Origin: Saccostrea cucullata
Taxonomy: Eukaryota
Assembly (NCBI RefSeq): GCF_032062105.1
Contig: NW_026935147.1
Location: 1-63,277, forward strand
Direction of reading: 5' to 3'
Length of the DNA: 63,277 nt
Shown here: positions 36,414 through 61,795 of the stretch, piece after piece
Position numbering within the stretch: position 1 is the stretch's first letter
How the letters are laid out: the number at the start of each line of letters is the position of its first letter
Position numbers and translations under genes: made by a program
The notes under the pieces: generated by a model
The model's input: only the letters and a program-made list of their open reading frames with translations
Database searches by the model: none
What the model was told of the DNA's origin: nothing

Positions 36414-36540
36414 TGTTGCATCATCTTTTTAGATCTATTGCATCATCTTTTTGATACCTGTTGCATCATCTTTTTATATCTGTTGCATCATCTTTTTTAT
36501 ACCTGTTGCATCATCTTATTATACCTGTTGCATCATCTTT
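36414..36540 (-). promoter_or_regulatory. CARE/ATF4-like motif array 1 (6 x GATGATGCAAY)
   Basis: TTGCATCATC every 22-23 bp. Confidence 0.6.
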
Positions 36541-36660
36541 CAAACTGGATTTATTGAAAACAATAATAAATAACACAGATTTTGATTTTTTTTTCAATTT
36601 TTATTTTACAATGAAAAAATACATACATCCAATTACATTTTCTTTTTCTTCTGTCCCTTA

Positions 36661-37209
36661 TCAGTCATCAGGGGTAGTTTCCTCTTGCTTTACCTCTCCT
36701 TTTTCTTGAGATTGTTTTTCTTCAGGCGATAAAGGGATGCGACAATATACATACACTTTATAAATAGGCCTATCTGTAAAAATTCCGATAAGCTTCTTTT
36801 CTTCTCGAAACCTCTTTTCTATCAATTGATGAAAACACAATCCAAGTTGAATTTTCCAGGAACTCTTCTCCCCACAATAAGGCCCACTCATGATCTCCAA
36901 TTGGTATTTTTGTTAACCGTAATATCCATTTTTTCTCTCCTTCAGACAGTATTTTTCTTCTCTGGTGTCAAGATTTTTTTCATAATCTTCAGGATCCAAT
37001 TCCACTCTTTTTACCAACCAAAATTTTTTGTACTTTAAATTCGGTGGCCATTTTAAATAATTTCTGTTGCGTTCATAAAAATTCTGGATGGCTTCTTCTT
37101 TAGTTTTCATCCATTTTCCAAAATGTTCTCCGTTAATAGACCAACAATACTCCGTTTCCTCTGTCATATTTTTTGTCTGCTCCATTTTTTTACCTGTGTC
37201 CAATTCCAA
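36661..37209 (-). CDS. Orphan two-domain Polinton protein, paralog A; in-frame TAA at 36913-36915
   Basis: Similar to 61870-62337 (YCWSI..FGKWMKTK vs YRWSI..FGPWMKTK; YVYCRIP vs YLYCRIP); same TATA promoter. Confidence 0.75.
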
Positions 37210-37238
37210 GTACTCACACAGACTGATCGTCCATGTCC

Positions 37239-37430
37239 AGCTCCGCTTTATATACCTTTACTGTTGCATCATCTTTTTTATACTTGTTGCATCATCTTTT
37301 GATATCTGTTGCATCATCTTTTTTATACCTGTTGCATCATCTTTTTATAGCTGTTGCATCATCTTTATATATCTGTTGCATCATCTTTATATATCTATTG
37401 CATCATCTTTTTTATACCTGTTGCATCATC
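37239..37430 (-). promoter_or_regulatory. CARE/ATF4-like array 2 (8 copies) plus TATA promoter of paralog A
   Basis: Minus strand GATGATGCAACAGTAAAGGTATATAAAGCGGAGCTG is identical to 61760-61795. Confidence 0.7.
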
Positions 37431-37551
37431 TGTAAGGGGGGCCGTGTGCAAAAAATACCATAGACTTACCTATGCATCGTGACGTCATCCACTGTATAAA
37501 TACAGGTTTTCTCCGACTTTCGGCTCATTCTACAGTCAGAGCCGGCTTCTA

Positions 37552-59598: not shown

Positions 59599-60702
59599 AT
59601 GAAGAAGAAGAAGAAGAAGAAGGGAGTAGAAGACATTTTAACAGAGATTTATTACGATCCCAAGAGAGGGTATGGAGGCATACAGACTTTGTATCGTCAG
59701 GTCAAAAGTCTGGGACATAAGATTTCTTTGAACACCATACGAGAATGGTTAAAAGAGCAAGATACCTATACCTTACATAAACCCATTCATAGAAAATTCC
59801 GGAGACAACAGACCAGAGTGACGGATATAGACGAACAATGGCAATTAGATTTAGCGGATGTGTCCAGTTTAAAGAAACATAATGACGGTTATACGTTTTT
59901 ATTGTGTGCCATTGACGTCTTATCTAAATATGCATGGGTGGTGCCTTTAAAACAGAAAACGGGGAAAGAAATGATTCGCGGATTACAAGAGATTTTCCGA
60001 CAAGACGATCGACGTCCCGTCCGCATTCAATCGGATCAAGGCAAAGAATTTACCAATCGAGAATTCTTACAGGCGTTTAAATCCATTCATTTCTTTACCA
60101 CTCGCAATACGGACACTAAAGCCAGTATCGTGGAACGATTTCAGAGAACCCTCAAAGCACGCATGTGGCGATATTTCACTCGGAATAAAACCAGACGGTA
60201 TTTAGAGATCTTACCGGATTTAGTGTATGCTTACAATCATACCTATCATCGCAGTATCTAAAGAACCCCAGCTCAAGTGAAGCCCTCGAATGTGTTAAAA
60301 GTCTGGAAAACTTTATATGGGGAAGAATCATCACCTAAACCAAACCCCCCCAAGTTTAAAACAGGAGATAAAGTGCGCATCAGTAAAGCTAAACGCACTT
60401 TTGAAAAAGGATATTTACCGAACTGGACCACGGAAATATTTACCATTGCTCAACGAGTCCCCGGTCGGTATCCTTACGTGTATCGAGTACAAGATTATAA
60501 CCAGGAGGAATTAGAAGGGACTTTTTACGAGAAAGAATTACAACAGATCATTAAAAAAGACGACGTGTACGAAGTGGAGGAAATCTTAGGGTATAAAAAG
60601 CGACGAGTCGGGAAGAAAATCATTCAAGAAGTCAAAGTCCGGTGGAAAGGATATCCCCCTAGTTTCGATTCATGGATTCCCCAAACGGATCTCATCAAAT
60701 AA
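59599..60702 (+). pseudogene. Polinton rve integrase with C-terminal chromodomain; in-frame TAA at 60259-60261
   Basis: WQLDLAD, IDVLSKY, QSDQGKEF, VERFQRTLK, YNHTYHRSI; YEVEEIL...VRWKGY...DSWI; both ORFs in the same frame. Confidence 0.93.
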
Positions 60703-60935
60703 CACCTCATTGGAAATGTTGTGGAGAGAATATTCCTCGAGAAGAAATTGTGTATTTTGCCCAATTATTCATTTGTATTTCCCTCATCATCACCAGTGTG
60801 GTCATGTTAGCTTTACACGATTCTAATCGAGAATATTGGATGGTCTGTGTGAGTTCTTCGGTCGGTTACATCATGCCTAGTCCTACCATGATACATCATA
60901 CCCCTAGGGTCAAGAAGACCAATTCACCCAGTTAA
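60672..60935 (+). CDS. Small two-TM Polinton membrane protein
   Basis: WKCCG...VYFAQL..hydrophobic..W...SSSVGYIMPSP. Confidence 0.7.
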   Translation: MDSPNGSHQITPHWKCCGENIPREEIVYFAQLFICISLIITSVVMLALHDSNREYWMVCVSSSVGYIMPSPTMIHHTPRVKKTNSPS

Positions 60936-61030
60936 TCCCAGAATCTAAAAATAGATACACCCTATAAAAAGGAGACACCATAACCCTAAGAGGATCATTT
61001 CTGATCTGAGTGAGGGACAGAGCACACATC

Positions 61031-61498
61031 ATGGATTTTTTAAGCTCAGAGTATCGTTGGAAAATAGTAGAACCTGAAGGGACTAGTCACAAAGGAGAAT
61101 GGATGAAAAACAAAGAGACATGTATTCAAGATTTCTTTGATAAGAATCCAGGACAAACAGGTCTCAATGAAATCTACCTGTATAAGAGATTCAAGTTACC
61201 GCACCGCCAAAGAAGCAAACATATGCTCTTAATATGACCCACATCACCTAAATATGGAGAATTTAAATGGAAAGTCAATTACGTCTTGGCTCACCGAACA
61301 CAGGGACCCGAGAAGACTTGGATTCATGGGAAATGGGTGAAAAAAGCCGGAGATTGTATAAAAGACTATTTGGAAGAAGTGGTCGTAAAAGGATACGATA
61401 TCATGGACTGTGCTTGTGAAACAGACTATTTGTACATGAGGAGACCTTTTCCCATACAAAAAGAACTGAACAGAAGTTTTGAATGTTTGTTATTATAA
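61031..61498 (+). CDS. Orphan two-domain Polinton protein, paralog B; in-frame TGA at 61235-61237
   Basis: ORFs 61010-61237 and 61286-61498 are in the same frame; YRWKI..GEWMK..CIQDF..YLYKR and FKWKV..GKWVK..CIKDY..YLYMR; TATA at 60963. Confidence 0.7.
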
Positions 61499-61579
61499 TG
61501 ATGTTCTTGTTATGAATCAATAAAATAAAAAAGAAAAAAACCCAAAAATTCTAGTGTTGTTATTTTTTCCTATATACAT

Positions 61580-61795
61580 ATGATGCAACAGGTATAAAAA
61601 AGATGATGCAATAGATATCAAAAAGATGATGCAATAGATATATAAAGATGATGCAATAGATATATAAAGATGATGCAATAGATATAAAAAAGGTGATGCA
61701 ATAGATATATAAAGATGATGCAACAAGTATCAAAAAGATGATGCAACAGATATCAAAAAGATGATGCAACAGTAAAGGTATATAAAGCGGAGCTG
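61580..61795 (+). promoter_or_regulatory. CARE/ATF4-like array 3 (9 copies) plus TATA promoter of paralog C
   Basis: TGATGCAAY every 22-23 bp, abutting GGTATATAAAG. Confidence 0.7.

Follow-up and report, generated by a model that had tools for sequence, protein, structure and literature searches.

Two arrangements in which host factors meet viral DNA are already known from the accessible text of the papers cited here, namely ATF4-responsive proviral promoters (HIV-1 and HTLV-1) and host-factor sites in adenovirus ends. ATF4 helps HIV leave latency and, at the HTLV-1 promoter, acts as a bridge for Tax (PMC10968437), and the adenovirus ends belong to a protein-primed replicon with NFI, Oct-1, and ATF sites (PMC2685984). 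A further candidate precedent, PMC8578388, was set aside because ATF4 sites in a provirus are not shown in its accessible portion. For the animal Polintons/Mavericks, the available part of PMC8097293 gives a plan that the family studied here shares (pPolB, integrase, ATPase, (AGT)2 ends, a 6-bp duplication, 17–21 kb), and it describes neither a promoter architecture nor a trigger; it also reports that Polinton particles have not been seen in vertebrates. In coral, polintovirus expression clustered by colony and not by heat treatment, in a design that did not permit statistics (PMC11131425, as far as its available text goes). In the literature outside subscription journals and bioRxiv supplements, we found no paper joining Polintons to ATF4, and none on Polinton promoter arrays.

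Here we analyze a 63,277-nucleotide window of Saccostrea cucullata DNA (the whole stretch, to which all coordinates refer) in which a Polinton carries three arrays of a short repeated word. Our preferred reading, held with somewhat better than even confidence, is that the arrays are enhancers bound by host ATF4–C/EBP, which would raise expression of the Polinton polymerase and accessory genes as ATF4 rises. The likeness to the HTLV-1 21-bp repeats and the HIV-1 LTR lies in integrated viral DNA with an ATF4-responsive promoter, putative in the case of the Polinton, and in a period of about two helical turns. The HTLV repeats have CRE-type cores. HTLV-1 and HIV-1 are retroviruses with one LTR promoter, whereas the Polinton is a DNA element with several promoters and hybrid CARE cores; HTLV-1 supplies a viral co-activator, whereas no co-activator was identified for the Polinton. 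The family offers a named candidate trigger for animal Polintons and a built-in control, with near-identical copies with and without an array in one genome. If our reading is right, a DNA-virus-like element would be reading a host stress pathway through amplified, exchangeable promoter modules; if it is wrong, the family still provides a clear example of a Polinton whose promoters evolve in modules.

Gene map of the Polinton

The element begins at 36229 with AGTAGT, and its right side is cut off by the contig end. The left terminal inverted repeat (36229..36413, plus strand) contains 35-bp repeats with TGCACTC, a match to the metal-response element (MRE) core, on the minus strand. An identical terminus with a 6-bp target duplication recurs in copies C15857 and C3427, and both (AGT)2 ends together with the 6-bp duplication were present in 2 of the 6 copies examined, the window having the left end only. 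Two genes that define Polintons were both found on the plus strand: a protein-primed DNA polymerase B (pPolB; 37560..41450, PF03175, E 9e-58), whose 5′ part lies in several frames here and which forms one 1,295-aa frame in copy C15129, and a retroviral-type integrase (59599..60701, PF00665), which is in pieces here and carries a chromodomain in C15129. Together with the AGTAGT terminus, they bear out the identification as a Polinton made in the first-pass annotation. Also on the plus strand are a BIR-RING inhibitor-of-apoptosis gene (41571..42101; PF00653, PF13920), with no array directly ahead, and an A32-like packaging ATPase (42146..42790; PF04665, E 3e-6). The start of a structural gene block (62482..63277, plus strand) is cut by the contig end, with no array ahead; it has no family match, and we take it to be a minor capsid gene from Polinton gene order. 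Elsewhere in the family, the best match of the protease candidate is weak (E 0.17, to a viral cysteine protease), and the capsid candidates, presumed to be such from their position in Polinton gene order, have no Pfam or PHROG match.

Three orphan paralogues complete the map. Paralogue A (36661..37185, minus strand) is split into two frames (36913–37185 and 36661–36891) and forms a single frame of 160–175 aa in other copies; paralogue B (61031..61498, plus strand) is broken, has its own TATA box, and has no CARE ahead of it in any copy displayed; paralogue C (61870..62337, plus strand) is intact at 155 aa. Paralogue A, pPolB, the integrase, and the gene at 61031 are thus all fragmented in the window copy, and some of these breaks may be assembly errors. 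The Polinton is further split by a 14.6-kb nested inverted-repeat transposon (44884..59495, no strand assigned), foreign to it, which has its own 21-bp arrays, a 6-bp duplication, and a DDE_Tnp_4 match at 49586. The nested transposon, the fragmented genes, and the running of the element off the contig end had gone unnoticed in the first-pass annotation.

Three arrays of one 10-mer in the window

Array 1 (36414..36540, minus strand), found by TRF and by exact-core scan, consists of six CARE-type units on the terminal-repeat side, with six exact TGATGCAA cores at 36423–36535; neither a TATA box nor a gene was seen directly behind it, and it is mirrored within the right terminal repeat of copy C8196. 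Array 2 (37262..37430, minus strand; TRF bounds 37261–37431) has eight units, with exact cores at 37271–37428, and is flanked by two divergent TATA boxes, one for paralogue A and one for pPolB. Array 3 (61580..61770, plus strand; TRF bounds 61580–61769) has nine units, with exact cores at 61581–61762, and ends 10 bp ahead of the TATA box at 61779 behind which paralogue C lies. The form R-TGATGCAA-Y is present in all 23 units of the window, and the spacing is 22–23 bp throughout, so that exact-core counts and TRF agree with the 6, 8, and 9 copies first proposed. Two open reading frames that span the arrays (37088–37435 and 37233–37463) were taken as repeat translations.

Arrays 2 and 3 share an identical block comprising the last unit and the TATA box (37238..37278 on the minus strand, 61755–61795 on the plus strand); identity at the two promoters had been claimed over 36 bp, and it holds, over a length of 41 bp. 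The genes behind the two arrays are strongly diverged paralogues, as had also been proposed, at about 27–35% amino-acid identity. The polymerase promoter (37480..37502, plus strand) has, as described earlier, a CRE (TGACGTCA, 37480–37487) and a TATA box (37495) of its own ahead of the ATG at 37560. Between it and array 2, a TGCACAC word with a 5′ T-run and a 3′ G (37444..37450, minus strand) matches the extended MRE and is retained in most copies.

The arrays are not a product of chance: genome-wide, the array pattern has 1,384 triplet matches and its reversed form 1, and the 10-mer R-TGATGCAA-Y forms 1,962 tandem pairs versus 0 in the control, nearly all of the first 100 listed being of this unit type. 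One tandem pair outside the Polinton family (C1012:819341) lies 1.7 kb ahead of a GPCR-like gene, for which no connection with stress was seen.

Constraint on the core

Units of the arrays were sought near clusters of exact cores by means of an 11-letter seed that tolerated up to 3 mismatches. The copies picked on pPolB contributed 195 units from 31 arrays at 26 loci; in this set, the 8-bp core shows 9 substitutions in 1,560 letters, against 145 of 585 and 142 of 780 in linker columns (18–25% variation), which agrees with the earlier description of an invariant core and variable linkers. Alleles under 5% make up 0.6% in the core versus 2.5% in the linker (P 2e-5, a nominal value, since the units share ancestry and are non-independent), and a set assembled for its resemblance to the array regions (305 units, 41 arrays) gives 2 core changes in 2,440 letters. 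The exact 8-mer is present in 186 of the 195 pPolB-picked units; the base at −1 is a purine in 195/195, and position 9 is a pyrimidine in 192/195. Four of the nine core changes yield TGACGCAA, which we take to be a bZIP hybrid site, or TGATGTAA, which conforms to TGATGxAAx. This pattern of substitutions shows the core to be under purifying constraint.

An invariant core alone cannot name the binder, since a 21-bp array of the nested transposon has 10 equally invariant columns (29/29 and 39/39) and no bZIP word. This matching pattern of invariant core and two-turn spacing would also fit arrays that bind a protein encoded by the element (an orphan paralogue or the integrase), as repeats in DNA transposon ends do, and so would the placement of two of the six arrays of copy C8196 in terminal repeats and the existence of a paralogue family with no known function or fold match. 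We nevertheless regard that explanation as very unlikely: copies without an array encode the same paralogues at 75–99% identity, the constrained span and the tolerated flanks fit a bZIP 10-mer, and the array interchanges with host-factor sites in the same slot, as described below.

Match to ATF4–C/EBP sites and host factors

The CARE core has been defined as TGATGxAAx, and both 9-mers of the arrays also stand in the human CARS and SARS promoters, as the CAREs that were mutated there (accessible text of PMC5175342); all 23 window units conform to this core. The likeness extends to the flanks, which are of the favorable kind reported for ATF4–C/EBP: the bases on either side of the 8-mer make a difference, strong sites are enriched for flank pairs that include A-T and A-C, and an unfavorable flank lowers the activity of a four-copy reporter of the ATF4 10-mer at least 10-fold (PMC6144830, in the part available). 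The array flanks satisfy this rule, which comes from a mammalian study. Host genes with CAREs mostly have one site, whereas the Polinton has 2–14 head to tail at 22–23 bp in up to six places, an arrangement that resembles a multimerized laboratory reporter.

The host genome encodes an ATF4-like bZIP protein (E 2e-10 to 1ci6, basic region conserved) and three C/EBP-like bZIP genes, one of which was tested. Among 8 host genes selected as likely ATF4 targets and scanned over about 1.5 kb around the first coding exon, a span set post hoc, the 10-mer lies near 3 (homologues of ChaC, ASNS, and 4E-BP), with 5 sites versus about 0.33 expected. One ChaC gene has three sites, one of them 118 bp upstream; the other 5 of the 6 ChaC-like genes have no 10-mer near the first exon. 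At other bZIP loci, there was none within 10 kb at five and there were two sites at one C/EBP locus, and all scanned host loci together hold 7 sites in 156 kb versus 2.2 expected. The CARE match recognized in the first-pass annotation thus extends to the flanking bases, and it is accompanied by host ATF4 and C/EBP and by the same word near target homologues.

A host bZIP protein could also bind the arrays without any stress switch, through C/EBP with another partner in a tissue- or stage-specific manner (for example, in germline or blood cells), or with the ATF4 orthologue acting as a repressor. CREB2, the invertebrate ATF4 orthologue, has a repressor role, and the host has three C/EBP-like genes. 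TGATGCAA is the second commonest C/EBP core; ATF4 heterodimers account for just 2–5% of C/EBP-beta sites, and the majority of sites with this core have not been mapped as bound by ATF4 heterodimers (PMC6144830, accessible text). Set against this explanation, the array word is the ATF4 hybrid and not the C/EBP palindrome, the identical 10-mer marks homologues of host stress genes, and the alternative cassette described below also holds stress-type sites (CRE and MRE-like); we judge it unlikely, though to be taken seriously.

Array slots across the family

Matches to pPolB at 86–100% identity occur in 150 of 523 scored candidates, many with open frames above 1,300 aa; the family is large, young, and multi-copy, and its copies are not all independent, since the assembly, in which host genes are paired, appears to hold both haplotypes. 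The nearly complete copy C8196 has six arrays: one in each terminal repeat, one at the promoter of paralogue A and pPolB, one before paralogue C, one before a 230–274 aa orphan gene behind the protease candidate, and one before a right-arm paralogue. No array was found in the mapped copies ahead of the ATPase, integrase, or capsid candidates or of paralogue B.

For a survey of slots, 60 copies were chosen by hand down the pPolB match list irrespective of arrays, and 56 of them have the CRE and TATA box of pPolB as an anchor. Within 330 bp upstream of pPolB, 13 of the 56 have no exact site, 18 have one, and 25 have two or more, leaving 31 copies array-less; conservation of the core across related Polintons, on which the first-pass annotation had staked its reading, therefore holds within arrays and fails for the presence of the array itself. 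In 16 of the 25 array-bearing copies, the array fills the distance from the flank of the terminal repeat to the pPolB promoter, and no orphan gene lies between. At slot 3, whose loci were picked by likeness to the window, 29 of 33 were resolved. A RING-like gene follows the TATA box in 25 of these 29, of which 7 have an array and 18 have none, and paralogue C follows it in 4; the RING-like gene encodes 149–150 aa and is called from the arrangement of its cysteines and from an Atlas score of 0.90, with no Pfam match. The proposal that the arrays are wired to orphan genes therefore finds no support in that form: pPolB is the steady target of the array, and the accessory gene varies.

Array-less copies keep the TATA boxes, and their slot holds a cassette of CRE, TGCACAC, TGCTGAC, and TTGGC words. 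Every one of the 18 array-less copies at slot 3 has a CRE together with 1–3 TGCACAC-type words, slot 4 has a CRE in 14 of 15 loci, and 87 of the 89 CREs of the same loci have favorable flanks. We read TGCTGAC as a Maf half-site, TTGGC-N5-GCCAA as an NFI site, and the octamer word of some copies as an octamer site. With a CRE, the octamer word, and TTGGC-N5-GCCAA, some copies resemble adenovirus ends; the adenovirus sites are single and fixed, whereas Polinton copies trade the content of the slot, which also recurs at internal promoters. The extended MRE rule for MTF-1 comprises a TGCRCNC core, a 5′ T-run, A at position 6, and a 3′ G (PMC1635269, in its accessible part); the TGCACAC word matches it in T-run, A6, and 3′ G, and sister cassettes carry 1–4 matches of TGCRCNC type.

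On the pPolB tree, which is indifferent between gain and loss of the array, array state requires 12 changes (18.7 on average after shuffling), of which well-supported branches force at least 4, so the slot has been swapped or re-expanded repeatedly. These changes, the range of 2–14 units per array, and the junction in the 16 copies, where the outer array 1 flank meets the inner array 2 flank as a crossover would leave them, would fit neutral minisatellites grown from one chance site, whose sole importance would be as points of crossover that reshuffle accessory genes. We give that idea a very small probability: it was already weakened by the contrast between a much more conserved core and its linker, gene-less left ends occur in array-less copies too, and the arrays of the mapped copies are confined to promoter and terminal slots.

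The same 16 copies, in which the array starts directly after the terminal repeat, bear on the possibility that the arrays are mainly host-factor sites that support replication starting in the terminal repeats, a role that NFI, Oct-1, and ATF sites have in the adenovirus ITR (accessible text of PMC2685984). Arrays 1 and 6, which lie in the terminal repeats and are followed by no gene, would fit such a role, whereas four of the six arrays adjoin internal TATA promoters far from the ends. As a main function it seems very unlikely to us; a replication role is in any case compatible with ATF4–C/EBP enhancers.

A candidate stress-responsive promoter module

From the position, conservation, flanks, and spacing of the arrays, the presence of host ATF4 and C/EBP, and the interchange of cassettes, all directly observed, we infer ATF4–C/EBP as the binder, an activating effect, and the integrated stress response as the trigger. 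The arrays probably serve as enhancers for host bZIP proteins, set in a promoter slot whose content can be swapped, and host stress would likely turn the polymerase and accessory genes on. The likely course of events starts with a single site in a mixed cassette of CRE, MRE-like, TGCTGAC, and TTGGC words; this site was amplified, and the array spread by recombination to up to six slots. Host ATF4–C/EBP dimers would occupy the 2–14 sites, about two helical turns apart and adjoining TATA boxes, and a rise in ATF4 would lead to more expression of pPolB and the accessory genes. Direct induction would be limited to early and accessory genes, since the structural, packaging, and integrase genes have no array; full lytic-type induction would be a further step.

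Against the ATF4–C/EBP enhancer proposal, we count the flat RNA signal (below), the 31 of 56 array-less copies (13 of them without an exact site), the wide use of this core by C/EBP, the array of the nested transposon, the 5 of 6 ChaC-like genes without the word, the fact that searches of viral and metagenome DNA found no array-bearing Polinton outside this genome, and the route by which mTORC1 can elevate ATF4 without stress (PMC10502085, available text). A wider scheme, which we consider less likely than not, would make the slot a plug-in stress sensor, repeated before the replicase and accessory genes (RING-like gene, orphan paralogues), into which competing sub-lineages load either an ATF4–C/EBP array or a CRE/metal/NFI-type cassette and exchange them by recombination. 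Array-bearing copies might then wake on the integrated stress response, much as prophages are induced by SOS, and the roughly 2,000 clustered sites could form a sizeable ATF4 sink or mobile stress enhancers for the host. If so, about 2,000 clustered optimal sites would stand beside about 16,000 expected by chance genome-wide, in an assembly that seems to hold both haplotypes.

RNA, wider searches, and the orphan proteins

Over 10 kb of copy C15129, three oligo-dT runs of unspecified condition gave 275, 171, and 193 RNA reads, at a depth of 0–6x on both strands and near zero behind array 3, with no start peaks in these runs and none behind arrays. A contig set, likewise of unspecified condition, gives flat, low coverage and may hold DNA. 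These data argue neither for nor against induction, since the condition is unspecified and paralogue C is a minority gene of its slot.

Searches with DNA context found no relatives of pPolB in viral contigs and none of the distant paralogue P0014 in metagenomes. Scans for the array pattern returned 49 viral and at least 116 metagenome stretches; in the 165 stretches screened, there was one weak protease-like match and no other Polinton gene, and hence no array-bearing Polinton from these scans. Arrays of TGATGCAA at 22–23 bp occur in unrelated DNA, and the array pattern alone is therefore not diagnostic. For the orphan paralogues, there was no Pfam and no phage match, one word-search match, and a best Atlas score of 0.77. 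Of their structural models (pLDDT 75 and 81), the first had no Foldseek match at E≤0.001, and with best Z values of 5.2 and 4.4, no fold was assigned to either. A profile search with the orphan paralogues returned 25 matches, two of which were repetitive and dropped as spurious; the other 23 are plausible and unnamed.

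Accessory genes carried by the Polinton copies

Immediately behind the gene for the protein-primed DNA polymerase B (pPolB), the window Polinton carries an inhibitor-of-apoptosis gene with BIR and RING domains (41571-42101), which is retained also in short Polinton copies that lack integrase and ATPase. Behind the array-3 promoter lies, in other copies, a cysteine-rich gene of 149-150 aa (L014:2409-2855 and 24 further copies), whose C-terminus shows a RING-like pattern and whose product has an Atlas score of 0.90 to viral clusters containing RING families, with no Pfam match. 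A right-arm gene of 165 aa (L036:8680-9177) encodes a product that by eye resembles a macrodomain; its sole match is PHROG 335 (E 2e-5), with none in Pfam or PDB.

Variation in the terminal repeats

Terminal repeats differ among the copies in the host genome assembly (G000). In some of them (C8196:994853-995100; C17876, right end) there are two words, an octamer and a CCAAT, that were not seen in the Polinton end within the window, and some Polinton promoters hold a complete TTGGC-N5-GCCAA palindrome. One copy has an inverted repeat of about 2.5 kb (C15857:361834-364528) that places promoter and pPolB start at both ends. Telomere-like TTAGGG runs lie within the terminal repeats of one sub-lineage (C17876:42087-42202; C3427:2620-2759; C18600:53192-53367), in which repeats of 0.8-1.4 kb include the orphan gene paralogue A at both ends.

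Other mobile elements and CARE-type sites outside Polintons

Nested within the window Polinton is a 14.6-kb transposon (44884-59495) with a 6-bp duplication and an internal DDE_Tnp_4 fragment. Its long inverted ends are built from a 21-bp unit repeated in tandem, 29 times in one array and 39 times in the other, and the first 10 letters of the unit are invariant. The window also holds two DIRS-like retroelement remnants (5797-9951 and 17780-21301) containing reverse transcriptase, RNase H, and tyrosine recombinase.

Five metagenome contigs (L211, L221, L238, L253, and L306), several belonging to one assembly, carry four TGATGCAA boxes at 22-bp spacing with an inverted box ahead; no Polinton gene was found near these boxes, which are possibly a bacterial operator repeat. 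In the host, two favourable 10-mers of the ATF4-C/EBP element (CARE) lie upstream of a C/EBP-like gene (C15312:412140 and 412550).
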